Assembly (NCBI GenBank): GCA_023249645.1
Contig: JAHFCF010000006.1
Location: 56,124-120,123, forward strand
Source of the DNA: Elusimicrobiota bacterium
GTDB taxonomy: Bacteria > Elusimicrobiota > Elusimicrobia > UBA1565 > UBA9628
Direction of reading: 5' to 3'
Length of the DNA: 64,000 nucleotides
A program made the translations under genes and the position numbers. Within the stretch, counting starts at the first letter, position 1. Every line of letters starts with the position of its first letter. Positions 1,914-61,451 of this stretch are shown in pieces. The notes under the pieces were generated by a model, which saw nothing but the letters and a program-made list of their open reading frames with translations, did no database searches and was not told the origin of the DNA.

Positions 1914-2486
1914 TCAAGTACGGGTCTTCAAGCGCAGGGACTTGAGCACAGACTCGAAAGCCGGCAGATCGTCCTTGTAATCCTGGCCCGCGGCCTTGAA
2001 TGCGAGCACGAGGAATCCTTGTTTCAAGGGCAGGATGACGCGGTCCTCGGTGATCAGCGCGTCGAAGGGGGGGAAGGCCGTGCCCGTGGGGATGTCCAGG
2101 GGTTCGATGCGGTGCTTGCGGGAGCTGACGATCCTCGTCGCCGCCCGGCCCGCGATCGTGATCATTCTGGGCTTGGAGACGCGCCAGGCCTTGTCCTGGC
2201 CCAATCGTGCCTGCAGCGTCAGGAGGTAGTCTTGCGCCCCGCTTTGATGGGGCAGGCGCGTGGGGCTGTATTCGTCTTCCGGATGCGTCTCGATGTGGAT
2301 GCCCGGCCGAAAGCCCCGGGTCTTTCCCGGACCCAGGAGACTGGCGAGGCCCTCTTCGACCGGCCCGACGATCCATGGGGCCGGCACGTCATAGGAATAG
2401 GGTGCGCCCTTCGGGCTCACGACAGCGGCCTGAGCCGCTCCGGCGAGGATCAGGACGGCCAGCCTAACGGATGCGGCAGGCAGCAT
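1914..2486 (-). CDS. Hypothetical secreted protein (N-terminal signal peptide)
   Basis: 190-aa ORF with a hydrophobic N-terminus (LAVLILAGAAQAAVV). It overlaps the stop of the upstream paralog gene by 23 nt. No recognisable domain. Confidence 0.45.
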   Translation of the reverse strand: MLPAASVRLAVLILAGAAQAAVVSPKGAPYSYDVPAPWIVGPVEEGLASLLGPGKTRGFRPGIHIETHPEDEYSPTRLPHQSGAQDYLLTLQARLGQDKAWRVSKPRMITIAGRAATRIVSSRKHRIEPLDIPTGTAFPPFDALITEDRVILPLKQGFLVLAFKAAGQDYKDDLPAFESVLKSLRLKTRT

Positions 2487-4197
2487 ATTCCCAGGTTAAA
2501 GGAGATTCCATCAGCATCTCGACCATGATCCTGTTTTTTTTGGCTTCATTGAGCTTGGGAGCCGCCAGCCGCATGGAGAGCTCATCATACTTGAGGCGCA
2601 TGTTCTGGATGCTTGGATCGCTTTTTTTGAGGGCTTCGCACTCCGCGTGTTTGGCGGACCGCCATTCATCATTGAGGTGGCGCGCCTCTTGGTCAAAGCG
2701 CTCATCGACGGCCAATTGCGCAAGCTTCTCCTCGTCCTTGTCTTGCCGAGCTGATTGCTTTTGCTGATCCAGCGTCACTTGGCCAGCCTGTATTTCCTTC
2801 TTTGGATCAGCGCCATAATACCTGGAAATGAGATCTGCTCGGAAATCAGCAGAGGAGTCTTGAAACTTGTGGAAAATGTCCATCTCTCCATCGGGAAGAA
2901 GGTGGCCGCGTTTTTCCTTGAGTGCGTCGATGGCTTTGCGGTCAGTCTCGATCTGCGAGGGTGCAAGAGGGGTTCCTGAACTCTGAAGATCCTCTTCGAG
3001 TGCTTGGATCTTTTCGTTTAATTCCTGCATTTTATTGGAATAATAACGGTACTCCATCATCCAGGCATAGGTTTCATTGGCGTATTCATTGGTTTTGGGG
3101 TATACATTGTTTCCTCCGCCATGGGATCTGACATGGACGTGGCCCGCTTCATGGAGGAATGTGGCCGCCAAACATTCAATGGAAAAACGTTCCTTGGAGA
3201 TGGCCTCGATCGGCCGGATGATGATTTTGTAGCGGACGGTGTAGTCTGCATTTCGGAGAAGCTGTCCGTTCTGGTCCTTGGCTGTCGTCGTGATCGCGAA
3301 GTTGGGCGATGCGGGGTCCCATTGGATGATGGTGTGATTGCTCGCTACGGCTTCGATGGCTCGCCGCGCATCGGCCAGGGCGATGAGGTCCGTGTGCGGC
3401 GGCCGGCCTGAATCCACGGGCACGGCATGGACGGCCTCCCGCATCAGGGCGAGGATGGAGGCGTCGTAGACCGTGGACAGGGAGTCGACCTGCTGGAGGA
3501 GTTGGGCCTTGATCTGGGCGGGCGTCTGGACTTCGAAAGGCGCATGATCGGATAGGAAGCTGGACTTAATCACCGGCCAGTCAACCGTGTTTTTTCGATC
3601 GGCGCCGTCGAAGTGCGCGGAGAGCAGATAGAAGGCATTCATGCTGGAGGCTTTGTCAATGCCGAGGGGTTGGGACATCCAGGCAGATTGAGCCAGATGC
3701 AGTCCGAATCTTTTGAGCGCCGCGTGCGCGCGCGCCAGGCGTTTCTGCAGGCGCTCTCTTTTGGCCCGGACCGGGAGGGCGGTCGCATCCGCGGCGTCGA
3801 TGATGAATCGCGCGGTCTGGGCCAGGGTGAGCTGCTCTTCGGGCTGGGACATGATGAACGCGACGCGCTTCATCCTCAGGTATTCTTCCGGCGAAAGGCC
3901 CGAGAGCGCTTGCTCGCAGGCGCGGCTCCAGTCTTTGTCCGTGAGGCCGATCGCCGGCGCTTCCTGCCGGTCATAGCGTTCCCGGCATTTTTCCTGCGCC
4001 ACGGCTAGGATGTCCGTGGAGAGCATGGTCCGGCATTGCCAGTCCCAGTCGGCTCGGGTCAGGCCGTAGGGGGCTTCGTAGGATTTCTTGTATCGGCTCG
4101 AGCATCCGGCGGGGTCGAACGGCTGCGCCCGCAGCGATGGCGCGGCCCAGAAGACTGCGAGAAGAAGAAAAAAGCGTTTAACGGATCCGGCAGGCAT
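2464..4197 (-). CDS. Secreted HExxH-motif protein, putative zinc metallopeptidase-like (paralog A of a tandem pair)
   Basis: 577 aa with signal peptide MPAGSVKRFFLLLAVFWAAPSLRAQ. Carries a duplicated N-terminal motif C..RY..x..Y.L.R..WD..C, an FLHEAGHVHV motif and a C-terminal EYAACRIR tail. Collinear with paralog B at HTDLIAL, NHTII, YYGADPKKE and ACRIR. Confidence 0.55.
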   Translation of the reverse strand: MPAGSVKRFFLLLAVFWAAPSLRAQPFDPAGCSSRYKKSYEAPYGLTRADWDWQCRTMLSTDILAVAQEKCRERYDRQEAPAIGLTDKDWSRACEQALSGLSPEEYLRMKRVAFIMSQPEEQLTLAQTARFIIDAADATALPVRAKRERLQKRLARAHAALKRFGLHLAQSAWMSQPLGIDKASSMNAFYLLSAHFDGADRKNTVDWPVIKSSFLSDHAPFEVQTPAQIKAQLLQQVDSLSTVYDASILALMREAVHAVPVDSGRPPHTDLIALADARRAIEAVASNHTIIQWDPASPNFAITTTAKDQNGQLLRNADYTVRYKIIIRPIEAISKERFSIECLAATFLHEAGHVHVRSHGGGNNVYPKTNEYANETYAWMMEYRYYSNKMQELNEKIQALEEDLQSSGTPLAPSQIETDRKAIDALKEKRGHLLPDGEMDIFHKFQDSSADFRADLISRYYGADPKKEIQAGQVTLDQQKQSARQDKDEEKLAQLAVDERFDQEARHLNDEWRSAKHAECEALKKSDPSIQNMRLKYDELSMRLAAPKLNEAKKNRIMVEMLMESPLTWEYAACRIR

Positions 4198-5959
4198 CGT
4201 AGCTCTCCATTAACTTGTTATAGGCGAGATTCAGTTGTGCCCCTCGTCGGTTGAGCGCGTTTTTTTGGGATTCCGATAGTCCGGGTTCATGGGTTCGGAT
4301 GACAATGATGTTGATCTTTTTTCTCAAGTCATTGACGACAGGATCGTTGATGAGCAGGGATCGGCATTCCTCTTTTTTGGCAGTGCGCCATTCTTGGTCG
4401 CGTTGGCGTGTTTCAGCTTCGAAGTCCTCATCCGTGGCCAGTTCTTTGAGCACGGCTGCGCTTTTGATGTCCAGCGCCCATTTTTTTTGCTGCAGGATCG
4501 TCACCTGGCCGGGAAAGATTTCATCTTCTTTGGGGTCAGTGCCATAGTAATCACGGATCATCTCTTCGCGAAACTCAGCAGGCGAGCTCTGGAATGTTTC
4601 CAGGCCGAGCATTTCGGTCTCTGGCATGAAATGGTCCCGCAGGCGTGTGAGCGCTGCAATGGTTTTTGTGAGGTGTTTGCGATCGACCCAAGTCAGAGGG
4701 CTTGGCGAATGGTCGAGATTTTGAGTCAGTCTTTTTATTTGTTCGTTGAACCTCTGGCGCTTGTTCGAGAAATAACGCGCTTCCATTTGATGGGCGTGTA
4801 TTTCATCCGTGTAATTGTTTTTTCCTCCTCCTTGAGCATTGAGATGCACATGGCCGCCGACTTCATGCAAAAGAACTCCAGCTAAAAATTCCAGCGGGTA
4901 ACGGCTCGTTGTGCAAGGCTCTCCGGGTTTGATGGATACTTGATAGCGCCAGGTGCCATCCGCGTTTTTTATCGCTGGGCGGGGTAGAGCTTTCTCTGGT
5001 TTATCTGATTCGGTGAACGTTGTGGCGTAGCTTTTTGATTTGCGGTTTAAAACGATGATGGTATGGTTTAAAATGATGGTTTCAATGGTGTCTTGGACAT
5101 CGGATAGGGCGATGAAGTCCGTGTGCGGCAGCAGCCCTGAGTTGATGGGCACGGAATCGACGAGTTCGCGCATCATGGCGATGATCAGGGGATCATAGGT
5201 CCGTCGGCCCTTTTCGTCTTTGAGCGTGTTCAGGGAGGATATTTGGGCCAGGAGACGAGTCTTGACTTGGAACGGGTCCGGGCGCGTCGGTGCGGCCAGG
5301 CGCGGGGCCGGGCGTTTGGACGCGAGAAAAATGGGGGAAAGCCTGGAGGGCGTCAGGCCGGCGTTGTCAAAGAAATGCGCTGCTTTCCGGTGGAATTCCT
5401 CCGAGGTCTTGGCTTGACCCATCTCGACGGGGAGCGCTCTCAAGTCCGACTCGGCCAAGGAATGTGAGAATCTTTGCCTGGCGGCTTCGGCTTGTTTGAG
5501 GCGGATATGCCACCGTGCCCTTTGTATCAGAATTTTTGGATCCTTCGAATCACTCGTGTCGAACATGAAATCGAAGACATCAGCCACGGTGATCTTATTG
5601 TCCGGCTTTGAGAGGAAACCCCGGATGCGCTGAGCCCGCAGGTATTGTTCCGGGGACACGAATTCCTTCTGCGCTTGATCGCAGTAATCGCGCTCCCACA
5701 TCTCCCTGGTCAGACCGATGTTCTTGCCCTCGTCAGGGTCGTATTTCGCCTTGCATATCTCCTGGGCGATGATCCGGATGTCCGCGGGGACCATCCCCTC
5801 TTCGCATTTGGAATCCCACTCCTCTCGGTTTAAGGAATAAGTCCGATAGGTGTCTTTATACCGTCGTTTGCAATCTTCGATATAGACGGGCGTGACCCCC
5901 CAGGCGCGCGGGGCCATGAGGATCGCGAGAAGGATCAAATAGCGCGCGTGGTTGTGCAT
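4178..5959 (-). CDS. Secreted HExxH-like-motif protein, paralog B of the tandem pair
   Basis: The ORF track gives 4178..6007. The start is more likely the ATG at 5959 (MHNHARYLILLAILMAPRAWG signal peptide, with an AGAGG RBS 10 nt upstream). Motifs: LLHEVGGHVHL, HTDFIAL, NHTII, YYGTDPKED, C-terminal SYDACRIR. Shares the N-terminal Cys-repeat module with paralog A. Confidence 0.55.
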   Translation of the reverse strand: MHNHARYLILLAILMAPRAWGVTPVYIEDCKRRYKDTYRTYSLNREEWDSKCEEGMVPADIRIIAQEICKAKYDPDEGKNIGLTREMWERDYCDQAQKEFVSPEQYLRAQRIRGFLSKPDNKITVADVFDFMFDTSDSKDPKILIQRARWHIRLKQAEAARQRFSHSLAESDLRALPVEMGQAKTSEEFHRKAAHFFDNAGLTPSRLSPIFLASKRPAPRLAAPTRPDPFQVKTRLLAQISSLNTLKDEKGRRTYDPLIIAMMRELVDSVPINSGLLPHTDFIALSDVQDTIETIILNHTIIVLNRKSKSYATTFTESDKPEKALPRPAIKNADGTWRYQVSIKPGEPCTTSRYPLEFLAGVLLHEVGGHVHLNAQGGGKNNYTDEIHAHQMEARYFSNKRQRFNEQIKRLTQNLDHSPSPLTWVDRKHLTKTIAALTRLRDHFMPETEMLGLETFQSSPAEFREEMIRDYYGTDPKEDEIFPGQVTILQQKKWALDIKSAAVLKELATDEDFEAETRQRDQEWRTAKKEECRSLLINDPVVNDLRKKINIIVIRTHEPGLSESQKNALNRRGAQLNLAYNKLMESYDACRIR

Positions 5960-6012
5960 GGAGAAGCCTCTATAAGGAAAGATAACAGAAGCAGTCACAT
6001 CGCGCATGAGCC

Positions 6013-6098
6013 AAAAGACCTAATTAGGTCTAGGTCCTTTTCCAGCCGCTTTCTAGGTCTAAAGCTCCAGAGAGATTGGAGGTCCGCTGAGCTATGAT
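6013..6098 (+). promoter_or_regulatory. Promoter region of gene 6134 with a CTAGGTC(C/T) motif array and a -10-like TATGAT (6093-6098)
   Basis: Contains aaaagacctaattaggtctaggtcctttt (including the perfect 16-nt palindrome agacctaattaggtct), ctttctaggtctaaagc and ggaggtccgc, followed by gctATGATgt and an RBS ggagcaagcc ahead of ATG 6134. Confidence 0.35.
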
Positions 6099-6133
6099 GT
6101 AGGCATGTTTGAAAACCGGCGCAGGAGCAAGCC

Positions 6134-7801
6134 ATGAAACGCTTCCTGGCCTTGGCTCTGAGCTTGACGCTATCCGGGATGCCTGTACGCGCCTTTGCCG
6201 TCGTGGTGCCTTCAGGGGTTGGCTCCACGCCGAGGCCATTCATCCTCGCCGGCCTTCGCGCTGATCTGACTGAGCCGCAGAAGCTCATCGCGCGGCAAGT
6301 GGACGCTGCCGTGGCTTCTCTCACGGCTGAGCAGCTCCGCGCGGCTCCGAGCTTGGCAAGATATCGGGGGATCGATTGGGGAGATCCGGGCTACAAGGCG
6401 ATGGCGCGCTACCTGGAATTCTCCATCCTGCCCCAGGATTCCAAACCGGAGGTCCTGGCCGTACGGCTGGAGGAAGCCCGCGCCGGGGCTGGCCAGGCGA
6501 TCCAGGAGCAGATCCGCAAGGCCTTGGAAGATCGGCTGGCGAACATGACTTTGGGGAATCAGGAAGAGGCCGCGGCAGTGCTCGCTGAGTTGGACCGGGA
6601 GATCGCGGAGTTAAAGCTTCGCCAGACGTTCCCGCAGGAGGTCTCTCTGGGCTTTTCACACGCCGCCCTTCGTGTCAATGAGATGCTGCTTCAGATCACC
6701 GCATCCCAGGCTGTGGAGGAGGTCGTCGCGGCGCCGATGCCGCAGGCTGAAGAACGGAGCCTGCTGTCGCTGCCGAAAGGTCCCGCCCCCGAGGTCGTGG
6801 AAGCTGAGATCGTTTCTCCACAGGATGAGTACAGGATCTTCGATAAAGTGCTTTCAGGCCGCAACATCAGCAGGCCTGCCAGCGACCAAGCCAAAGAGCG
6901 GGGCGTCTTTATTCAGAAAAATTATCACGGCGGTGTGGGACAAATCAAGCTCCCTGAGGAAGCCCGGTATGTCGTCTGGTCCGGGGACGGGGAAGAGGGA
7001 ATCTGGCGCAGAAAAGACGACGGTCGCTATGAGAAATTGTCCGCCACGACCATTGCTGATCTGGCGTTGTTGACAAGAAACTTCGCGAGTCAGAAGGCGT
7101 CTGCCCAAGATCAGGCGTTTAATGAAAGGATGTATACCTCAGACCTGGATCTTAGAAAAACAAAGTTCTTGGATGTTCGTGGCCAGGAAATCGAATACGC
7201 CCCATTCTTCATCGTTAAAACTGGTTTATGGAGGGTCAATGCGGCTGCTTACCAGCCACCGAAGCTGCTGAGACCGCTTACTCTCAAAAATCATCTGGCC
7301 GGTGGTTGGTTGAGCCTTACGCTGGCGGCATGGCCTGGTTTTTTCCTTAACCCGGACCTCTTCACCTTGGCCACGCAGGATTTTACGGTCCTTGGATTGC
7401 TTATTGCATCTGGTTGGGCAGGCACAATAATTGTTGGTTTCGTCTTGAAAAAAAGACTGACAAACGATGAACAAGAAAAATTGATTAAGGATAGCCTTCC
7501 AGCTGCTTTCAAGGCATGGGCTTGCACGGATGAGGGGCGGATCCGGGTTTTGCTAACGGCTGCCATGCTCCCATGGTTGGCCCCCGCTGTTGTTTTTGGA
7601 GCCGGTGCTTTTGCTTTATGGTTTCTGCCGCATATGTTGACGGCTTCTCTGGGGACCGGTGTGTATGCCGCTTATTGCGCGCTGCGCGCCGGCCGGAGCT
7701 ATCGGGAAATGACCCAACGCCTTACGGATTGGAAAAAGGCCCAGCTGGGATTTCAGCCGAACGCCAAGGGACTTCCTTATTCAAGGAGCAAGAAGTCATG
7801 A
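6134..7801 (+). CDS. Hypothetical signal-peptide protein with Gln/Glu-rich coiled-coil region and C-terminal transmembrane helices
   Basis: 555 aa with signal peptide MKRFLALALSLTLSGMPVRAFA. The C-terminal 150 aa are hydrophobic (LTLAAWPGFFL..., LGLLIASGWAGTIIVGFVL, LPWLAPAVVFGAGAFALWFL). Its stop overlaps the start of the M28 gene (ATGA). Confidence 0.5.
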   Translation: MKRFLALALSLTLSGMPVRAFAVVVPSGVGSTPRPFILAGLRADLTEPQKLIARQVDAAVASLTAEQLRAAPSLARYRGIDWGDPGYKAMARYLEFSILPQDSKPEVLAVRLEEARAGAGQAIQEQIRKALEDRLANMTLGNQEEAAAVLAELDREIAELKLRQTFPQEVSLGFSHAALRVNEMLLQITASQAVEEVVAAPMPQAEERSLLSLPKGPAPEVVEAEIVSPQDEYRIFDKVLSGRNISRPASDQAKERGVFIQKNYHGGVGQIKLPEEARYVVWSGDGEEGIWRRKDDGRYEKLSATTIADLALLTRNFASQKASAQDQAFNERMYTSDLDLRKTKFLDVRGQEIEYAPFFIVKTGLWRVNAAAYQPPKLLRPLTLKNHLAGGWLSLTLAAWPGFFLNPDLFTLATQDFTVLGLLIASGWAGTIIVGFVLKKRLTNDEQEKLIKDSLPAAFKAWACTDEGRIRVLLTAAMLPWLAPAVVFGAGAFALWFLPHMLTASLGTGVYAAYCALRAGRSYREMTQRLTDWKKAQLGFQPNAKGLPYSRSKKS

Positions 7802-17121: not shown

Positions 17122-17715
17122 TTGTGCGTTGCTCTGACGGGCACGATGGGTTGCGGCAAGTCCGAGGCGCTGAAGGTTTTTCGCCGTCTGGGTGCCGCGG
17201 CCCTTTGCCTCGACGAAACGGCGCACCGGGTTCTGTCCAAGGGCGGCTCCGCGTATCAGCCGGTCCTCCGGAGTTTTGGGCCAGCCATTCTTGACCGACG
17301 CGGGCAGATCGACCGGCGGACTCTGGGCCGAATCGTCTTCGCGAAACCGGCTCTGCGCCGCAGGCTGGAGCGATTGACTCATCCGGCCATCCTGTCAGAG
17401 ATGCGTTCTTGGATGCGTTCGCGTGGTCGCGGGCTCGCGGTCATTGACGTTCCGCTTCTCTTTGAAAAAGGCTTGGAAAAGGAATTCGATTTGACGATGG
17501 TCGTGGCGGCTAAAAAAACGCTTTGTTTTAAACGACTTTTACGGCGAGACGGACTGAAACTCCGAGAACTGCGTCGTCGTTGCGCGGCTCAGATGCCCTT
17601 GCCTGAGAAGATGAGCCGCGCGGATGTGGTCGTGCGCAATGAAGGTTCTTTAAAGGATTTGGCAAAAAAAATCCAAGAATATGGCAGGGCGTTCCAGCTG
17701 ATACATGGAGGATAA
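17122..17715 (+). CDS. coaE: Dephospho-CoA kinase
   Basis: Sequence (L)[19 protein letters not shown] aligns with the CoaE N-terminus (IVALTGGIGSGKS P-loop). The ORF-track start at 17062 would translate through the palindromic repeat, so it is probably wrong. Start codon uncertain (TTG 17122 or ATG 17146). Confidence 0.75.
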
Positions 17716-19099
17716 ACCCGTGGAGAACACCAGCGTCAATGCGGAAGAGAACAAGGCCGCCCCGGCCGCCGGTCCCGCTTCCAACGGCGGCGAAGCAGCG
17801 GCGCCCAGGCCTTCCGCGCCGCTCACCCAGTTGGACGTCACCCAGCTTTCCAAGATGACCATCGCGCAGCTCAATGAGATCGCCAAGAATCTCAAGCTCG
17901 AAGGCATCTCGGGCCTGCGCAAGCAGGAGATGATCGCCAAGATCCTCGAGGGCCAGCTCAAGGCCAACGGCATGATCTACGACGAGGGCGTCCTGGAGAT
18001 CCTGCCCGACGGCTTCGGTTTCCTGCGCTCGCAGGAGTACAACTACCTCTCCGGCCCGGACGACATCTACATCTCGCCGTCGCAGGTCAAGAGGTTCGGC
18101 TTGCGCAAGGGCGACACGGTCGCTGGCTTCGTGCGCCCGCCCCGGGAGGGAGAGCGCTTCTTCGCTCTGCTGCAGGTCAAGAAGATCAACGGCATCGATT
18201 CCGAGCTCTTGAGGGACCGACCCTTCTTTGACAACTTGACGCCTCTGCATCCCGACGAGCGCTTCACCCTCGAGGTCGAGCGCAACGAGCTCACCACGAG
18301 GCTGATGGACCTCTTCTGCCCCATCGGCAAGGGCCAGCGCGGGCTCATCGTGGCCGCGCCCAAGACGGGCAAGACCATCATCCTGCAGAAGATCGCCAAC
18401 GCGGTCGCCGCCAACCATCCGGGCGTGACGGTCATGGTGCTTTTGATCGACGAGCGGCCCGAGGAAGTGACGGACATGAAGCGCAACATCAAGGGAGAGG
18501 TCATCTCCTCGACCTTCGACGAGCCGGCGGACCGGCACGTGCAGGTGGCCGAGATGGTCCTGGAGCGGGCCAAGCGCTTGGTCGAGATGGGGCGCGACGT
18601 GGTGATCCTGTTGGATTCGATCACGCGGCTGGCGCGGGCCTTCAACACGATCTGTCCCTCCACGGGCCGGGTGCTCTCCGGGGGCCTCGAGGCGACCTCG
18701 CTGCAGAGGCCCAAGCGGTTCTTGGGCGCGGCGCGCAACATCGAGGAGGGGGGCAGCCTCACCATCATGGGCACGGCCCTGGTGGACACGGGCTCTCGCA
18801 TGGACGAGGTCATCTTCGAGGAGTTCAAGGGCACGGGCAATTCCGAGATGTGCCTGGACCGCAAGCTCGCGGATAGGCGCATGTTCCCGGCCATCGACAT
18901 CAACCGCTCCGGCACGCGCAAGGAAGAGCTCCTCATGTCCGAGGATGAACTCAACAAGATGTGGATCCTGCGCAAGGTCCTCGCACCCTTGGGATCGGTG
19001 GAGGCCATGGACCTGCTGCGCGACAAGCTCCTCTCAACAAAGAGCAACAAGGACTTCCTGAGGTCCATGGAACTCTCCAATCTCTCGGAGTCTGAATGA
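17705..19099 (+). CDS. rho: Transcription termination factor Rho
   Basis: 464 aa with an N-terminal extension, an RNA-binding OB domain and the ATPase core ([15 protein letters not shown], Walker A; DSITRLARA). Confidence 0.9.
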
Positions 19100-40271: not shown

Positions 40272-40354
40272 TTTGGGACCTTGATTATACCAGAGAGTTT
40301 GGCAAAGCGTCTTGAAAATAACCTAGAATACGCCTCTCCGGAGGAGGAAGACCG

Positions 40355-41686
40355 ATGACCCTGCGCAGAAAAAATCTTTGTGCCGTCATTCTGGCATGCT
40401 CCCTGACCGGGTGCGCGACACCCAAGCCCGCGGTGACTGTCTTCGAACTTGTTTCCAGGGCACCGGCGCAGCTGACGGCCCGTGAGGAATGCGTGGTCAA
40501 GAGCGTGATGCCGGGTTCGCCGGCCGCCCAGGGAGGGATCAGGGCGGGGGATGCCCTCACGGGGTTGAACCGGGACACCGCGCCTGCCGGGGATTTGAAT
40601 TTCGAGGCGTTCCTCTCCAGCCGCACGGGGCCGTTCCAAGTCGAACTCACGCGTCAGGGAAAGCCGCTGCAGCTGGATATCATGCACACGGAAGATCTTC
40701 ATCCTTTCGGGGTGACCTGCGATTTTGGCGACATCGAGGCCAGCCAGGACGAGGCGTTTGTGGCCATCAAGGGCTCGCTCGAGCTTCTGGTGCGCGCGGA
40801 AGTGATCGGTCCGGCGAGCTTCATCTGGGTCCGCCTTCAGAACCGCTCCACCAAGCCGCTCAAGGTCTCTCCGGATATGTTTTCGGCCTCGTCGGCGGAT
40901 TGGACGATCTTGAACCCCATCCGCTTCTCCGACATGGTCTCCTCTCTGCAGGCGATGGAGGTCTCGGGCCGCTTCGCGGGCAAGGGGGCTGAGTCAGCGA
41001 GCTATACCTTCGGCGTGGGCGACGCCCTCAGTCAGATCCCCAACATCATCCCCATCCCGGGAGCCGGCATGGGCGCCAACTTTCTTTTGAAGAACACGGG
41101 CCTGACGGACATGGTGAATGCTCAAACATCCTCCGTGACTTCCCTGCCCTTGGGAGAGGAGAACGGGCTCGGGCCGAGGTTCCGGGGCGCCAGCAAAGGA
41201 TTGGCGGCCACCTGGATCCCATCGAGCGGCAACGTGGACAGCGACCTGGCCGTGGCGGCCAACGAGATCATCCGCAGAAAACCCTTCCGGGAGACGGTGC
41301 TGACTCCGGGCTACGCCCAGGAAGGCTATCTGTATTTCGAGCAGCCGGACAAGCTGCCCTTGCGCCTGAGCCTAGATGCCGGCGAAGAGCATCTGGCGCT
41401 CCTCTTCGACGAGAAAAAATTCACGATGACCCCGCGGGAGCTGGCAGTCTACGCCCGGGGCGTCCCCGAGTTTTCGCACAAACAGGCGGTCCTGGCCGAC
41501 GGCCAGTTCTTCGAAGGGGAGATCGGCGCCTGGGATCGCATGGCGCACGGATTCAAGACCCGGATCCGCAAGAACGGCCAGGAAGTGAAAAGCAAACTGC
41601 TTCTTAAGGACATCCGGATCCTGAAGGTCGCGGGCCGCAACACCATCTTGGTGGCGGAGCCGCCCAAACCGGCGAAGCCTCAGTAG
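40355..41686 (+). CDS. Lipoprotein with PDZ domain
   Basis: Lipobox LTGCATP. PDZ-like VVKSVMPGSPAAQGGIRAGDALTGLN. The rest is unassigned. Confidence 0.6.
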   Translation: MTLRRKNLCAVILACSLTGCATPKPAVTVFELVSRAPAQLTAREECVVKSVMPGSPAAQGGIRAGDALTGLNRDTAPAGDLNFEAFLSSRTGPFQVELTRQGKPLQLDIMHTEDLHPFGVTCDFGDIEASQDEAFVAIKGSLELLVRAEVIGPASFIWVRLQNRSTKPLKVSPDMFSASSADWTILNPIRFSDMVSSLQAMEVSGRFAGKGAESASYTFGVGDALSQIPNIIPIPGAGMGANFLLKNTGLTDMVNAQTSSVTSLPLGEENGLGPRFRGASKGLAATWIPSSGNVDSDLAVAANEIIRRKPFRETVLTPGYAQEGYLYFEQPDKLPLRLSLDAGEEHLALLFDEKKFTMTPRELAVYARGVPEFSHKQAVLADGQFFEGEIGAWDRMAHGFKTRIRKNGQEVKSKLLLKDIRILKVAGRNTILVAEPPKPAKPQ

Positions 41687-41717
41687 CGGTAGTTGTCCGG
41701 CTTGTAGGGCCCATCGG
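41680..41717. repeat. Direct repeat, left copy: 38-nt duplicate of the ahcY 3' end (TCAGTAGCGGTAGTTGTCCGGCTTGTAGGGCCCATCGG)
   Basis: Identical to 42032-42069. It supplies the TAG stop of the PDZ lipoprotein gene. Confidence 0.85.
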
Positions 41718-42031
41718 CTGGCAGCATCCAACAGAGCTTTCAATGCGGTGCTGATCGCGCCGCATTGAAAGCAGCGCGTCCCCTTTCCGATGGGACGCGC
41801 AACAACGCAAAGGTCTTTAGAAATTCGACGCGAGTGAGGAATAGCTCTCGCGTCGGGCTTTCAGCCCCATGGAAAGCCATGGGACTGAAAGCTTTGGGAC
41901 AGAATCGTGTTCGGAGGATAGTTATCCACAAACTCTTCGCGCGAAGAGTCAGCGGAGGAACTTGGTACGCACCGAGTTGGTGGCAGTCACTCGCGCTTAA
42001 CTCGCCGCGCGGCGAGTCGGTGGATAAGTCT
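41718..42031. other. 314-bp hairpin-dense insert between the duplicated ahcY 3' ends; candidate structured ncRNA or miniature mobile-element remnant
   Basis: At least six consecutive non-identical stem-loops: gctttcaatgcgg/ccgcattgaaagc, gcgcgtccc/gggacgcgc, cgacgcgag/ctcgcgtcg, gctttcag..ccccatgg aaag ccatggg..ctgaaagc, ctcttcg/cgaagag, ctcgccg/cggcgag. No ORF. No tmRNA, RNase P or SRP signature. Confidence 0.4.
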
Positions 42032-42069
42032 TCAGTAGCGGTAGTTGTCCGGCTTGTAGGGCCCATCGG
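42032..42069. repeat. Direct repeat, right copy: the authentic 3' end of ahcY
   Basis: Identical 38 nt to 41680-41717. Encodes the conserved SAHH C-terminus ...[11 protein letters not shown]. Confidence 0.85.
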
Positions 42070-43354
42070 TCGGAATGCCTAGGTATTCCGACTGCTCTCG
42101 AGTCAGGCGCGTGAGCTGGGCGCCGAGCTTTCCCAGATGCAGGCGAGCCACCTTCTCATCCAGGAGCTTGGGCAGGGTGTAGACCTGGTTCTTGTATTTG
42201 CCCTTGCCGCGGTTGGTCCACAGCTCGATTTGAGCCATGGTCTGGTTGGTGAAGGAGGCGCTCATGACGAAGCTGGGGTGGCCCGAGGCGCAGCCGAGGT
42301 TGACCAGGCGCCCCTCGGCCAGCAGGGTCAGTCTCTTGCCGTTGGGCCAGACGAACTGGTCCACCTGCGGCTTGATGTTGACCCTCTGCAGCTTCGAATC
42401 GCTGGTCAGAGAGGCCACGTCGATCTCCAAGTCGAAATGACCGATGTTGCAGACGATGGCCTGGTCCTTCATGGCGTCCAAGTGCTTGCGGGTGATGATG
42501 TCCCGGCAGCCCGTGGCCGTGATGAAGATGTCGCCCAGGGCGGCGGCCTCGTCCATGAGCACGACCTGGTAGCCTTCCATGCAGGCCTGAAGAGCGTTGA
42601 TAGGGTCGATCTCGGTCACGAGCACGCGTGCCCCCATGCCGCGCAAAGACTGGCAGCAGCCCTTGCCCACGTCGCCGTAGCCGGCCACGACACAGGTCTT
42701 GCCCGCGATCATGACGTCGGTGGCGCGCTTGATGCCGTCCAAAAGCGATTCCCGGCAGCCGTAGAGGTTGTCGAACTTCGACTTGGTGGTCGAATCATTC
42801 ACGTTGATGGCCGGGCACTTCAAGGTGCCGGCGGCCTGGCGCTGATAGAGCCGGTGCACGCCCGTGGTCGTCTCCTCGGAGAGGCCGATGATGTCCTTGA
42901 AGAGCTCGGGCTTCTGGTCATGGATCATGTTGGTCAGATCCCCGCCGTCGTCCAAAAGCAGCGTGGGGCCCAGGCCCTTGGGCCAAACGAGGGTCTGCTC
43001 GATGCACCAGTCGTATTCCTTTAAAGTCTCGCCCTTCCAGGCGAAGACAGGGACTCCGGCCTTGGCCACGGCGGCCGCCGCGTGGTCCTGGGTCGAGAAG
43101 ATGTTGCAGGAGCTCCAGCGCACGGAGGCTCCGAGCTCGACGAGGGTCTCGATCAAGACCGCGGTCTCGATGGTCATGTGCAGGCAGCCGGCGATGCGGG
43201 CGCCTTCCAGCGGCTTTTTGCCGCGGTATTCCTCGCGCAGGGCGCTTAAGCCCGGCATCTCGTATTGCGCGATGGTGATCTCTTTGCGGCCCCAATCGGC
43301 GAGACTGATGTCTTTGACTTTATAATCCATGGTGGAGGTGGTCATGTGCCTCAT
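42032..43354 (-). CDS. ahcY: Adenosylhomocysteinase (S-adenosyl-L-homocysteine hydrolase)
   Basis: NAD-binding motif ([15 protein letters not shown]). Conserved C-terminal KPDNYRY. 440 aa. Confidence 0.95.
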
Positions 43355-44415: not shown

Positions 44416-45017
44416 GTCGGCTCTCAGCAGGCTTTCTTCTGGTCGCGCTTCTCGGCGGCTGCCGTCATGCTGAGCCTCTGGTCGATTTTTCCAAACTGCA
44501 TCCGGCGGCGGTCTTGGACATCCGCTACGCCACGTCGAATAATTTCACGCATCAGCAGGTCTATCCCGTGGCGCGCTGCCTGCTTCGGCGTTCAGCCGCT
44601 GGCCGCCTGGCAGAGGCGGTAGCGGAATTCGAGTCCAGGGGCCTGCGGCTCAAGGTCTTCGACTGCTATCGGCCTTTGTCAGTCCAGAAGAAATTCTGGG
44701 CGCTCGTGCCTGATGAGCGCTATGTGGCCGATCCGGCCAAGGGTTCGCGCCATAATCGCGGCGCGGCCGTGGATGTTACCTTGACGGACGCGAGCGGACA
44801 CGAATTGGAGATGCCCACGGGCTATGATGATTTCACGGAGCATGCCCATCGCGATTGGGCTGGGGCTTCGGCTGCGGCGGCCAAGGATCGCGCACTTTTA
44901 GAGCAGGTCATGGCCCGGCACGGTTTTGTCGGGCTTGCCACAGAATGGTGGCACTTCGATGCGGCGGGCTGGGAGAGATATCCGGTCGAGGATGTCCCTT
45001 TCGACTCTGTTCCCTAG
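44412..45017 (+). CDS. D-alanyl-D-alanine dipeptidase (VanX/DdpX-like, M15 family) lipoprotein
   Basis: Sequence LDIRYATSNNFT...FDCYRP...SRHNRGAAVDVTL...EWWHFD matches VanX-family motifs. Lipobox LLGGC. Confidence 0.75.
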   Translation: MSRLSAGFLLVALLGGCRHAEPLVDFSKLHPAAVLDIRYATSNNFTHQQVYPVARCLLRRSAAGRLAEAVAEFESRGLRLKVFDCYRPLSVQKKFWALVPDERYVADPAKGSRHNRGAAVDVTLTDASGHELEMPTGYDDFTEHAHRDWAGASAAAAKDRALLEQVMARHGFVGLATEWWHFDAAGWERYPVEDVPFDSVP

Positions 45018-58613: not shown

Positions 58614-60104
58614 TCAGCTCAGGGCGAAGAGGCGGCGGATGCGGGAGAGCAGGTCTCCGCGCGCGTCTTCGAGCCGTCGGCGGCCGGCGTCTTCCTGCAG
58701 GGCCGCGCGCGCGGTCTTCAGCTCCCCTTGGCGCTGGGCCAGGGTCGCCGAGATGCTCACCGCGATCTCCGGCCGCTTTTTAAGGATGTCTTTGAAGTCC
58801 TCGCGCTCGAGCCTGTAGGCGAGCACGTCGCTCAAGGCCACGATGGTCGCCGAGCGCGGCTCGCCGGTCATCAGAGACATCTCGCCCGCGAAGTCGCCGG
58901 GCTTCAGGCGCGCCACGCTGCGCGAGCGTCCGCCTTCCTCCAAACGCACCTCGGCCTCGCCTTCCTGGATGAGGAAGAACCAGTCCGCCGAGCCGCCCTG
59001 GCGGGCGATGGCTTCCGTGCGGGCGAAGGGCGCGGGCTTCAATCGTTGGGCCAGGGTCTCGATCTCCTCGTCGCTCAGGGCCTTGAAGATGTCCACGCCG
59101 CGCAGGGCCTGGCTGCGGCGCTGGAGTTCCGCATCCAGGGAAACGGCCTGCGGCGCGACTGTGAGGCAGCGCGCCGGGACGGCTAGGGAGATGCCGGCGC
59201 GGGTCAGGGCGAAGAAGGCGCGCAGCCGGACCTCGGAGGCGACTTCCTCGGACCGCGCCAGATCGCTCAGCCAGAAGCGGGCTCTATAGGACGCGTGGCT
59301 TGCCGTCAGCGCATTGAGGAGGCAATCCGGCGGCGGGTCAGCGGCCACGCCCGGGGGCGGGTCCTCGCGCAGGGCGGACTCCACGACGCCGATGACCTGG
59401 GTGGGGAGCCGGCCGGCATCAGCCTCGAAGTCGACTTTCATGAGACGAGGAGAGACTCGTCCCTGCCGGCGGCCCAGGACCATGACCACGCTCTTGATGA
59501 GGGTCCCGTTGGGGATGATGACCGTATCTCCGCCATCCGTCTCGATCGTGGTCTGGCGCCAGCGGATCTCGCGGACCACGCCCTCATCGACTCCCATGCG
59601 GATGCGGTCTCCGGGGGAGAGGGAATTTTCCAGGTGCAGGACCATGCCGCCCAGGATGTTGCCCAGCGTGTCCTGCAAAGAGAAGGCGATGACGGCCGTC
59701 ACGACCGCCGAGGTCGCCAGGATCCCGGTGAGGTTGGCTCCCTCGTGAGAGAGCACGGTCAGGGTGATGGCGACATAGGCCCCGGCCAGGATGAGGTCTT
59801 GGATGAGAGCCGCCAGGGTCAGCCGCAGTCCCAGGAGGATGAGGTCGAAGGCGACGGCCGCCGAGGTGTTGACCAGGGCGAGAGCCAGCAGGATGTGAGA
59901 GAGGCCGCGTACGATGCGGCAGAGGCCCGAATCCAGCGGAAGGCCCATGCGGCTGAAGATCGCGGCTGCGAAAAGTCCCGCAGCGGAAATCAGCGCGAGC
60001 AGAGCCGCCGCGGCGACGCGCCGGCGGGTGGCCGGCGCCAGGAGGTAGAGGAATCCCAGCGCGACCAGAAAGAGAGGGATGAACCAGAGATGGAGGAAGT
60101 TCAT
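58614..60104 (-). CDS. MscS-like mechanosensitive channel fused to a C-terminal cyclic-nucleotide-binding domain
   Basis: N-terminal TM helices plus the MscS beta-domain (DRIRMGVDEGVVREI...TVIIPN). C-terminal cNMP-binding motif (GDFAGEMSLMTGEPRSATIVA). Confidence 0.7.
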   Translation of the reverse strand: MNFLHLWFIPLFLVALGFLYLLAPATRRRVAAAALLALISAAGLFAAAIFSRMGLPLDSGLCRIVRGLSHILLALALVNTSAAVAFDLILLGLRLTLAALIQDLILAGAYVAITLTVLSHEGANLTGILATSAVVTAVIAFSLQDTLGNILGGMVLHLENSLSPGDRIRMGVDEGVVREIRWRQTTIETDGGDTVIIPNGTLIKSVVMVLGRRQGRVSPRLMKVDFEADAGRLPTQVIGVVESALREDPPPGVAADPPPDCLLNALTASHASYRARFWLSDLARSEEVASEVRLRAFFALTRAGISLAVPARCLTVAPQAVSLDAELQRRSQALRGVDIFKALSDEEIETLAQRLKPAPFARTEAIARQGGSADWFFLIQEGEAEVRLEEGGRSRSVARLKPGDFAGEMSLMTGEPRSATIVALSDVLAYRLEREDFKDILKKRPEIAVSISATLAQRQGELKTARAALQEDAGRRRLEDARGDLLSRIRRLFALS

Positions 60105-60137
60105 AAGTATATTCTAGCTAAAAGTCCCTAGCCTTGT

Positions 60138-60193
60138 GACTGTGTCCGGACACAGTCACTGATTTTTTGAACCGACTGTGGTCGACCACAGTC
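60138..60193. repeat. Bipartite palindromic element copy 4: GACTGTGTCCGGACACAGTC (60138-60157), 16-nt spacer, GACTGTGGTCGACCACAGTC (60174-60193)
   Basis: The second palindrome lies within the last codons (…LWSTTVG…) of the EndoQ-like gene. The first straddles its stop codon. Confidence 0.8.
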
Positions 60194-61451
60194 CATGGAT
60201 CTTAAAGTCTTCCTCATTCAGCAGGGAGACGGTCCCGAATTCTCCGTCAAAGCCAGGCTGGACTGAGACCTGGCCTGCGCGCATGCGTTTCAAAGCGAGC
60301 GCGAGCAGTGGGTGTCCTTCCTCATCTATTCGGTCGACTGGGAGCTCTCGCAGGATGGAGAATTCGTTGCCGAAACGCTCCAGAAGCTTGTGATAGAGCG
60401 CGTCCACCTTGACGCTTTGCACGCCCACGCGTAGGACCTGGCCCAGGACCTCTTTTAAAGGAAGGAGATGCTCAAAACCCGTACCGCCTCCCGGCTGGGC
60501 GCCTGGACTCCTGTCAGCAAGCTTCATGACGCGGCTCAGGACGCCGACGGTCACCGGCTTCTTGCAGGAGGGGCAAAGGCCGCCTTGCCGCAGGGTCTCC
60601 GCTGGCTCGAGCCGCGCGCCGCACGCACGATGCCCGTCCATATGGTATTTGCCTTCTTCCGGGAAGAACTCGAGGGTCTTTAGGAATCTCTTGGGATCGC
60701 GGCTGCGGATGGAGGAGAAGATATCGGCATAGGAGAGTCCGCAGTCGAAAAGGTTGGCCTCCCGGCCGAGTTTCTCCGGCGAGTGCGCGTCCGAGTTGGA
60801 GATGAGCGCGATGCGGTCCAAGGCTGAGAGCCGCCGATTCATGGGAGGGTCGGAGGAAAGCCCGGTCTCGATGGCGAAGATCTCCTTGGTCAGATCTCCG
60901 AAGCATTCTTCCAGCGTGTCGAAGCCGGATTGCGAACCGAAGACCGCGAAATGAGGCGTCCAGGCGTGAGCCGGGATGAGATAGGCCTCGGACGATGTCT
61001 CGCGGACCAGGGCCAGGAGTTTTTGGGAGTCGAGGCCCAGGATAGGGCGGCCGTCGGACTTGAGATTGCCGATCTTGGCCAGCTTCGCATTGATCTTCTC
61101 GACGACCTGGAAGGAAGGGGCATAGACGAGGTTGTGGACCTTGCGTGTGCGTCCGGCCCTCTTGTAGATGGTCGAGATCTCGGTCTGCAGGAGAAAGCGC
61201 ACCGGAGCCCGGCAGGATGGGGGGACCTTCTGCGCCTTGGCCAGGCCGGGTTTCAAGGAATAGAGTCCAGGCTCCGCCTCCACCAACTTGGACTTGAGTT
61301 CCGCGAGCCATTCTGGATGGGTGAAATCAGCGGTGCCGAGGATCGAGATCCCCTTGAGCTGGCACCAGCGGTGCAGGTTCTCTGGATTCAGCGAGGGGCT
61401 GCAGGCCCGCGAGTAGCGCGAATGGACGTGGAGGTCGGCGATGAGGCGCAT
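60156..61451 (-). CDS. PHP-domain protein with C-terminal zinc ribbon, endonuclease Q-like (TIGR00375 family), tentative
   Basis: Sequence MRLIADLHVHSRYSRA is a PHP metal-binding motif. The length (431 aa) and the C-terminal C-x17-CPSC ribbon resemble archaeal/Bacillus EndoQ. Confidence 0.45.
   Translation of the reverse strand: MRLIADLHVHSRYSRACSPSLNPENLHRWCQLKGISILGTADFTHPEWLAELKSKLVEAEPGLYSLKPGLAKAQKVPPSCRAPVRFLLQTEISTIYKRAGRTRKVHNLVYAPSFQVVEKINAKLAKIGNLKSDGRPILGLDSQKLLALVRETSSEAYLIPAHAWTPHFAVFGSQSGFDTLEECFGDLTKEIFAIETGLSSDPPMNRRLSALDRIALISNSDAHSPEKLGREANLFDCGLSYADIFSSIRSRDPKRFLKTLEFFPEEGKYHMDGHRACGARLEPAETLRQGGLCPSCKKPVTVGVLSRVMKLADRSPGAQPGGGTGFEHLLPLKEVLGQVLRVGVQSVKVDALYHKLLERFGNEFSILRELPVDRIDEEGHPLLALALKRMRAGQVSVQPGFDGEFGTVSLLNEEDFKIHGLWSTTVGSKNQ

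Follow-up and report, generated by a model that had tools for sequence, protein, structure and literature searches.

A hairpin-dense spacer behind ahcY of an Elusimicrobiota bacterium: a probable mosaic of palindromic DNA repeats

Introduction

What is the 314-bp block of hairpin-forming DNA that separates the S-adenosyl-L-homocysteine hydrolase gene ahcY from its convergent neighbour in an Elusimicrobiota bacterium (contig JAHFCF010000006.1)? The block occupies positions 41718–42031 of the 64-kb stretch of this contig that was analyzed, referred to below as the window (coordinates are window positions, unless another locus is named), and it is bordered by two copies of the last 38 bp of ahcY. 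An initial annotation of this DNA had proposed that the block encodes a structured non-coding RNA (ncRNA) or represents a miniature element. Here we describe a family of 42-nt palindromic repeats, two decayed copies of which form the ahcY-proximal third of the block. Our analysis suggests that the block as a whole is probably a lineage-specific intergenic mosaic of such repeats, resembling bacterial interspersed mosaic elements (BIMEs) and REPINs, the inverted doublets of repetitive extragenic palindromic (REP) sequences.

Results

A family of 42-nt palindromic repeats

The last long hairpin of the block is a composite structure of 110 nt (41920–42029; −52 kcal/mol on the plus strand and −56 kcal/mol on the minus strand), the arms of which (41922–41949 and the reverse complement of 42000–42027) are 79% alike. 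The consensus of these arms (TTATCCACNNACTCNNCGCGCGNNGAGT, with 22 specified bases) served as a search pattern against a metagenome collection. By an arithmetic estimate, chance occurrences of this pattern should number fewer than one per 10^12–10^13 bases. The scan nevertheless returned 20 matching contigs, 19 of them distinct. At 12 of the 19 distinct loci a full unit was present, in which the right part, free of any constraint from the pattern, completes a palindrome of 38–42 nt with a stem of 17–19 bp and the consensus AGTTATCCAC-RR-ACTC-NN-CGCGCG-NN-GAGT-YY-GTGGATAACT. In a full unit, a GC-rich inner palindrome separates the head, TTATCCAC-NN-ACTC, from its mirror arm; the remaining distinct loci carry "half units", composed only of the head and the inner palindrome.

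Two base pairs of the stem were not specified by the pattern, and these are complementary in 17 of the 19 distinct copies. Five combinations were found (GT/AC, TC/GA, GC/GC, TT/AA and TG/CA), including swaps of GC to UA and of UA to CG, and the complementarity vanished when the partner column was slid. Such compensatory changes indicate that it is the pairing which has been maintained, and not the sequence alone.

The subvariants of the unit group by sample: half units of the form ACTCTCCGCGCGGAGAGT occur on four Ga0187825 contigs, and full GT/AC units on four Ga0247727 contigs. The sharing of one subvariant by different loci of the same sample is the pattern of a repeat family residing within genomes. 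The taxonomic position could be determined for three of the carriers, and all three are Elusimicrobiota. The contig L026 encodes an Fmt protein 85% identical to that of an Elusimicrobia metagenome-assembled genome (MAG), and the proteins encoded by L024 and L025 are identical to those of NCBI "Elusimicrobiota bacterium" MAGs; the latter two contigs appear to originate from one MAG (same sample and same NCBI accession series). The unit was absent from the viral contigs of IMG/VR, the plasmids of PLSDB and the phages of INPHARED, and its sequence was not found in the searchable full-text literature.

Most of the units are located in very short intergenic regions, 0–30 nt behind a stop codon (e.g. 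TAG|TTATCC in L032, TAA|G in L033 and TAG|AG in L022, the vertical bar marking the end of the gene). In L022, L025 and L033 a single unit fills the entire gap between two convergent genes. Two further units (L017, 2888–2929; L021, 4215–4256) lie within long open reading frames (ORFs), where 42 nt correspond to 14 codons. Both appear to be in frame, with a G+C content at third codon positions (GC3) of 0.81–0.90 on either side, and in both the translation reads ELS(T/A)NSSR(E/D)ESV; the ORF of L021 encodes GH94 domains upstream of the unit. No flanking duplications were found at any of the other unit-bearing loci.

The units may also be combined. In L029 there is a doublet of 35-nt inverted arms (1083–1117 and 1360–1394), 91% complementary and 242 nt apart, one of which ends in the unit arm GAGT-CG-GTGGATAA; three copies of a 17-mer containing CCGGACAGC are placed between the arms. 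In L030 we found a mosaic of three units and two copies of a palindrome of about 130 nt (973–1104 and 1215–1342; 66-nt arms, 74% complementary; 60-nt direct repeat, 83%). Between the two long palindromes lies a perfect 42-nt unit; the non-coding region that contains all three measures 630 bp and precedes an amino-acid permease gene. The long palindromes constitute a second, distinct repeat family of these genomes.

Several known palindromic sites were compared with the unit. Integron attC sites were considered on account of their conserved outer arms, variable centre and position at gene 3′ ends, but inspection revealed no GTTRRRY core. The HrcA-binding CIRCE element, parS, dif and LexA boxes were likewise rejected, for reasons of sequence and context.

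The two copies in the window

An unfiltered search of all 64 kb with a covariance model built for the unit identified exactly two copies, both of them inside the 314-bp block (the next-best score was 13.7 bits). The copy designated U1 (41920–41962; AGTTATCCACAAACTCTTCGCGCGAAGAGT...; 42.3 bits, E 3e-10) retains an intact left arm with a perfect TTATCCACA, its right arm being decayed. In U2 (41995–42029; ...ACTCGCCGCGCGGCGAGTCGGTGGATAAGT; 29.9 bits, E 3e-6) it is the right arm that is intact, the left one having lost 7 nt by deletion. The 110-nt composite hairpin is formed by pairing of the intact outer arms of the two copies, which gives it a REPIN-like geometry. Together they make up the ahcY-proximal 110 bp, i.e. 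about a third of the block. U2 ends 2 nt before the ahcY stop codon; when the GTCT extension seen in L029 and L030 is included, it abuts the stop codon, the typical position of the unit.

No perfect DnaA-box 9-mer other than the TTATCCACA of U1 (41922–41930) occurs in the 64 kb; its inverted counterpart 97 bp away, in U2 (42019–42027), differs from the box by one mismatch. The DnaA-like 8-mer forms the outer arm of the unit in every member of the family, the left arm having been fixed by the search pattern, and a variant unit of L030 (920–960) carries TTGTCCAC, a high-GC form of the DnaA box. This likeness was recognized post hoc and is a lead, not a finding.

Folding of the block

The initial annotation had described the block as hairpin-dense, and this was confirmed: it is the strongest folding outlier of the window. 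The predicted fold energy of the 314 bp is −155.6 kcal/mol on the plus strand (z −7.45) and −154.5 kcal/mol on the minus strand (z −9.11), with none of 100 shuffled sequences reaching as low a value in either case. The two strands therefore fold equally well, and neither the block nor the hairpins and units within it are assigned to a strand. In a GC-corrected scan of the 64 kb by sliding 300-nt segments, the six most extreme segments all overlap 41718–42031. The next outliers (2901–3200, 60051–60400 and 44501–44800) deviate by about −2.7 to −3.0 standard deviations.

Upstream of U1 and U2 there are four main hairpins. H1 (41736–41772) has a 16-bp stem (GCTTTCAATGCGGTGC/GCGCCGCATTGAAAGC) with a 5-nt loop and one G-T pair on the plus strand; H2 (41774–41800) has a 9-bp stem (GCGCGTCCC/GGGACGCGC) with a 9-nt loop; H3 (41826–41855) has a stem of about 10 bp (CGACGCGAG.../...CTCGCGTCG). 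H4 (41856–41893) is the nested hairpin with two CCATGG palindromes that had been noticed previously: its 16-bp stem bears CCATGG in each arm, and a C-A mismatch on the plus strand corresponds to a G-T pair on the minus strand. It is followed by a weak hairpin of 7 bp, including two G-U pairs (41894–41915). The stems of H1–H4 measure 9–16 bp, not 7–13 bp as first estimated. The hairpins had also been regarded as mutually unrelated. This holds only in part, as the last two are copies of one dispersed unit, and H1 and H4 have the foot GCTTTCA...TGAAAGC in common, a sequence with no further occurrence in the window. A single large palindrome extending across H1–H4 was considered and rejected, since the alignment of its would-be arms (first 190 bp) scored 19 against a shuffle maximum of 21.

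Signals of an RNA gene

The Rfam comparison that the initial annotation had foreseen yielded no family. In the region 41000–42800 nothing was recognized at E≤10 (the top-scoring model was FinP, E 0.22, whose 22 bits fall short of the gathering score of 45), and in the whole window a search with Rfam 15 at the gathering threshold returned nothing except one tRNA. Neither a tRNA nor a tmRNA was found in the region, in agreement with the earlier statement that tmRNA signatures are missing. The block had likewise been said to contain no ORF. Two mechanical ORFs (105 and 108 aa) do span it, but neither these nor a 43-aa ORF across the insert matched Pfam or PHROGs.

A promoter scan of the block revealed no site of the sigma-70 type, the promoters of Elusimicrobiota being uncharacterized. 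No intrinsic terminator is present inside 41718–42031, and no T-run follows H1, H4, U1 or U2. H1 and H4 each contain one non-Watson-Crick pair, which takes the form of G-U on the plus strand in H1 and on the minus strand in H4, so there is no consistent strand signal. A dedicated RNA gene is thus not supported by these data.

The 38-bp direct repeat and the flanking genes

The block is preceded by an orphan copy of the ahcY 3′ end (41680–41717, no strand assigned) and followed by the genuine one (42032–42069, minus strand). The two copies are identical at 38 of 38 bp, for which the chance expectation is 0 matches. Read on the minus strand, the repeat comprises the 12 C-terminal codons of ahcY plus the stop codon, and the identity starts exactly at the final base of that stop codon. 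The ahcY gene itself (42032–43354, minus strand; Pfam AdoHcyase) was called as a 440-aa ORF; its homologues are 437 aa long and start three codons later. These AhcY homologues also assign the organism to Elusimicrobiota.

The convergent neighbour (40355–41686, plus strand) is a 443-aa ORF with a weak PDZ domain and a lipoprotein-like N-terminus. Of the left 38-mer, this ORF uses only 41681–41686 (CAG TAG), its last codon and stop. Although 31 of the 38 positions in the left copy do not code for protein, no difference has accumulated between the copies, and this suggests that the event was recent. When the 314 bp and one repeat copy were removed in silico, the 3′ ends of the two convergent genes came to share 7 nt (TCAGTAG). 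The PDZ protein is very rare, three homologues having been found among 5.8 billion proteins. Its C-terminus carries an extension of 8 residues (AEPPKPAKPQ) that is absent from the homologues and runs into the orphan 38-mer. The genes of the homologues (57–59% identity) are located in a different neighbourhood (rubredoxin-PDZ-BcrAD) and not beside ahcY.

Several observations show that the arrangement of repeat, insert and repeat is not an assembly artefact. A separate ENA contig of the same organism has the identical 345-nt spacing between the PDZ gene and ahcY. In that contig the PDZ gene is split otherwise than in the window, into ORFs of 178 and 250 aa, which suggests a frameshift or a pseudogene there. 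An independent Logan unitig (SRR14366760), which agrees with the window at 100% identity along 3.7 kb, comes to an end at 41709, one base before the first 31-mer common to both repeat copies. A k=31 de Bruijn graph must branch at this point if the 38-mer is preceded by two different sequences, and the break is a read-level sign of two such left contexts.

Elsewhere in the window, a Rho gene is present at 17705–19099, and three successive large ORFs (577, 609 and 555 aa) without a Pfam match at E≤0.01 occupy 2464–7801.

The ahcY locus in relatives

We examined the ahcY locus of relatives whose AhcY proteins are 86–89% identical to that of the window (L003–L010 and L012–L014). In L003–L006 and L012 a co-directional DEAD-box helicase gene begins 14–40 nt after ahcY, followed by a gene for a 223-aa protein, a DsbA-like gene and MauE/DoxX genes, the same set that the window has on the left of the PDZ gene. 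In L007, ahcY and the helicase gene are separated by three small genes, one of them for a Gp49-type toxin, and in L008–L010, L013 and L014 other genes are found downstream of ahcY. In the window, the PDZ gene and the insert take the place of the helicase gene. As the contents differ between relatives, the stretch from ahcY to the 223-aa gene is a variable spot, and the DNA downstream of ahcY looks like a local hot spot of rearrangement. The differing DNA spans 40272–42031 in the window, 9315–10601 in L003, 4097–5605 in L007, 7315–7871 in L008 and 1889–3176 in L012; its contents are a DEAD-box helicase, a Gp49-type toxin cassette with the helicase, a PNPOx gene, a gene for a 517-aa protein or, in the window, the PDZ gene.

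Neither the 314 bp nor a second copy of the ahcY end is present in any of these relatives, where ahcY is followed by ordinary short, terminator-like single hairpins or by the co-directional helicase gene, and no units occur at their ahcY loci. The block is missing from every relative with a readable ahcY locus and is therefore recent rather than conserved. It follows that the covariation among homologous ahcY loci which the initial annotation had in mind cannot exist for H1–H4.

The closest relative (AhcY 91% identical; an ERZ1426832 contig for which we had the gene coordinates only) has ahcY at 88–1401 and a convergent gene at 1395–2540. The 7-nt overlap of these two genes matches exactly what is predicted for the empty site.

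Discussion

Origin of the block and of the duplication

In our opinion the 314 bp are a lineage-specific, BIME/REPIN-like mosaic of hairpin-forming palindromic DNA repeats occupying an intergenic 3′ spacer; we would put the probability of this explanation at roughly 0.6. Our presumption is that H1–H4, too, are palindromic motifs belonging to this mosaic. The conserved design of the unit, a head beside a hairpin, leads us to infer a trans-acting protein that would spread or maintain the unit by reading the head, in the manner of the RAYTs (REP-associated tyrosine transposases) or of IS200-type Y1 transposases. By analogy with known repeats, the block would be transcribed as the 3′ tail of both genes, with U2 and U1 coming first behind ahcY and H1 first behind the PDZ gene. 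The stems could then act as protectors of the 3′ ends and as a buffer between convergent units that formerly overlapped by 7 nt, a role proposed here because it has been established for REP and BIME elements.

The 38-bp duplication would be a recombination scar, left by the event that brought the PDZ gene next to ahcY, and not the footprint of a transposase. One parent may have had ahcY directly followed by a repeat cluster. In the other, the last 7 nt of the PDZ gene may have overlapped the end of ahcY, as those of the convergent gene do in the 91% relative, and the two arrangements would have been fused by an illegitimate join at a point 38 bp within ahcY. On this tentative model, the parents had different neighbours beyond the stop codon, which would explain why the identity goes exactly that far, and the repeat is perfect despite its largely non-coding left copy because the event was recent. 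The model also accounts for the lack of transposon hallmarks and for the rearrangement of this spot in every relative. An origin by tandem duplication was considered as well; it requires a second 314-bp copy to the right of ahcY, and there is none.

A number of observations weigh against this explanation. About two thirds of the block, namely H1–H4 (41736–41893), found no relative in 245 kb of Elusimicrobiota loci, and a 22-mer of H4 was absent from the GTDB representative genomes and from IMG/VR. In the 64-kb window the organism has no copy of the unit beyond U1 and U2. A crude regular-expression search for HUH and Y motifs in the window and all 34 loci gave no candidate transposase or RAYT, and Pfam searches with most of the window genes identified no transposase, integrase, Cas1, excisionase or other mobile gene. 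The insertion of REPs or REPINs is not known to us to duplicate 38 bp of target, nor do we know of any repeat family that does so. As for the scar, a parental arrangement of ahcY, cluster and another neighbour was not seen, and the convergent gene of the 91% relative, represented by coordinates only, is no more than a candidate PDZ homologue.

Comparison with known repeats and elements

The block shares with the REP clusters and BIMEs of Enterobacteria its non-coding, extragenic location at gene 3′ ends or between convergent genes, its composition as a mosaic of different short imperfect palindromes, its stable hairpins on either strand without a U-tract, and its variability between close relatives. 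The remark in the initial annotation that the block is unlike a REP cluster of identical units is therefore only half right, as clusters of the BIME type combine different motifs in a mosaic and, in the block, one unit accounts for two of the hairpins. There are also differences. The sequence of the unit is unrelated (its foot is AGTTATCCAC...GTGGATAACT, with no GTAG/CTAC), which places it outside the classical REP families; it is longer (42 nt), its copy number appears low, and only a third of the block is tied to a repeat family. Moreover, the unit is kept across genomes that differ by 15–28% in a housekeeping protein, whereas the range of a REP is usually limited to one species or genus.

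In REPINs, inverted REP doublets are mobilized by RAYT transposases (PMC3337134, PMC3116915). The 110-nt hairpin of two spaced palindromic units formed by U1 and U2, and the inverted doublet of L029, are reminiscent of this organization, as is the existence of lineage-specific subvariants, each of them perfectly palindromic. In contrast to REPINs, however, no RAYT was detected here by the crude test mentioned above, the doublet of the window consists of two decayed full palindromes rather than clean inverted REPs, and a 38-bp duplication is not a REPIN feature.

The Rickettsia palindromic elements (RPEs) are 100–150 bp long and occur either in frame within protein-coding genes or in intergenic regions. 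The apparently in-frame units of L017 and L021 (two cases, judged by composition only) recall them, although the sequences are unrelated and a 42-nt unit is much shorter.

Other explanations

The exact 38-bp direct repeat over the 3′ end of a conserved housekeeping gene is a classic signature of integrase-mediated insertion. A size of 352 bp is about that of an attP site with both arms, as in phage lambda. The insert might have arrived by site-specific integration, as a miniature or decayed element of the cis-mobilizable type (CIME): either a 352-bp circle or a larger element of which only the arms were left after deletion. Its integrase would have been supplied in trans, the 38-mers would be attL and attR, and the carried gene end would have kept ahcY intact. 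The variability of the region downstream of ahcY among relatives agrees with this possibility, as does the layout of CIMEs, which have lost their integration and transfer genes and kept attL and attR (PMC5704250). The insert and the CIMEs have in common an exact direct repeat, with a conserved gene 3′ end, on both sides of DNA that is free of genes. CIMEs measure kilobases, however, and consist of decayed element genes, whereas the 352-bp insert of the window contains a dispersed palindromic repeat and has neither a cognate integrase among the scanned genes of the window nor a full-length relative; no larger element occupies the ahcY site in any relative examined. The 38-mer core is absent from the IMG/VR viral contigs and the JGI metagenomes, as are three further 22–24-mers of the insert from IMG/VR, and the insert matched no phage, its only plasmid match being through the ahcY-coding 38-mer. 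The part adjoining the supposed att core is, besides, a unit found alone at many loci without flanking repeats. To our knowledge no genuine CIME is this small. We regard such an origin as the main alternative, though an unlikely one.

A non-autonomous transposable element with a 38-bp target-site duplication, produced by widely staggered cuts of the casposase/Cas1 type, is distinctly improbable. A unique insert within a perfect direct duplication of its target is formally a target-site duplication, and the predicted empty-site geometry, present in the closest relative, would suit it. Yet the insert lacks terminal inverted repeats, no second copy exists in the window or in any collection searched, no transposase or Cas1 gene was found nearby, the other unit loci lack flanking duplications, and a random staggered cut is not expected to begin exactly at a stop codon. 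A miniature inverted-repeat transposable element (MITE) in particular was rejected: the ends of the insert (CTGGCAGCATCC... and ...GTGGATAAGTCT) show no significant complementarity, the alignment of arms within the first 190 bp was no better than those of shuffled sequences, the duplication measures 38 bp and not 2–10 bp, and no second copy was detected in the window, the GTDB representatives, IMG/VR, plasmids or phages.

The proposal that the block is a new structured ncRNA, acting in cis on ahcY or the PDZ gene or in trans, draws on its very stable predicted folding (z −7.5 and −9.1), the lack of a convincing ORF and a position in the 3′ region of two genes, where read-through transcription is probable. 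We nevertheless consider it improbable, given the missing Rfam match, promoter and terminator, the equal energy of both strands with non-Watson-Crick pairs of H1 and H4 favouring opposite ones, and the absence of the block from all relatives examined, which leaves H1–H4 without covariation. The sole part with homologues is a symmetric DNA palindrome, found in either orientation, in varied contexts and apparently also in frame within ORFs. Of the two possibilities raised by the initial annotation, the ncRNA thus gained no positive support, and the repeat-element side is supported for about a third of the block. It is still less probable that the locus is primarily a binding site at which the inverted TTATCCACA and GTGGATAA boxes recruit DnaA or another dimeric regulator, the hairpins being incidental. 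In favour of this are the sole perfect DnaA-box 9-mer in 64 kb with its inverted partner and the recurrence of the 8-mer as outer arm throughout the family, of which only the right arm is independent evidence; the compensatory changes in the stem, in turn, argue for selection on base pairing and not on independent half-sites, the units lie behind stop codons and inside ORFs and not in promoters, and the box was picked out after the fact. Known loci for DnaA titration or DnaA reactivation have far more than two boxes. Finally, repeat–insert–repeat is how a graph loop, arising from a shared 38-mer and threaded into the chromosome, would be expected to look, and the Logan unitig breaks at the repeat. 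An artefact of this sort is hardly credible, as the same 345-nt spacing recurs in the ENA assembly, which differs in the split of the PDZ gene and hence is not the same contig, and the break itself shows that the 38-mer truly has two left neighbours in the reads. Assemblers with k>38 require reads across the junction.

Significance

Taken alone, the block is an ordinary object, a palindromic-repeat spacer. For annotation, the lesson is that strong folding z-scores in such spacers should not be taken as evidence of ncRNA genes. The exact 38-bp duplication at the stop codon is a natural example of two overlapping convergent genes that have been separated with both left undamaged, and it could be used in the study of illegitimate or site-specific recombination in these genomes.

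A bolder idea, for which we see only a slim chance, is that the 42-nt TTATCCAC...GTGGATAA palindrome is the cis element of an undescribed mobile or maintenance system specific to Elusimicrobiota, in which a trans-acting protein would read the DnaA-box-like head beside a GC hairpin and place units precisely behind stop codons and also in frame within genes, the insertion at ahcY having duplicated about 38 bp. If this were true, the ahcY locus would record a mode of insertion unlike that of any known bacterial repeat family.

The repeat family itself is missing from Rfam, from the searchable literature and from the plasmid, phage and viral collections, and we found no REP-type repeat family described for Elusimicrobiota, an uncultivated phylum. 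As such, the family may provide a handle on the spread of repeats without an obvious RAYT, and on the marking of 3′ ends or the termination of convergent transcription in this phylum.

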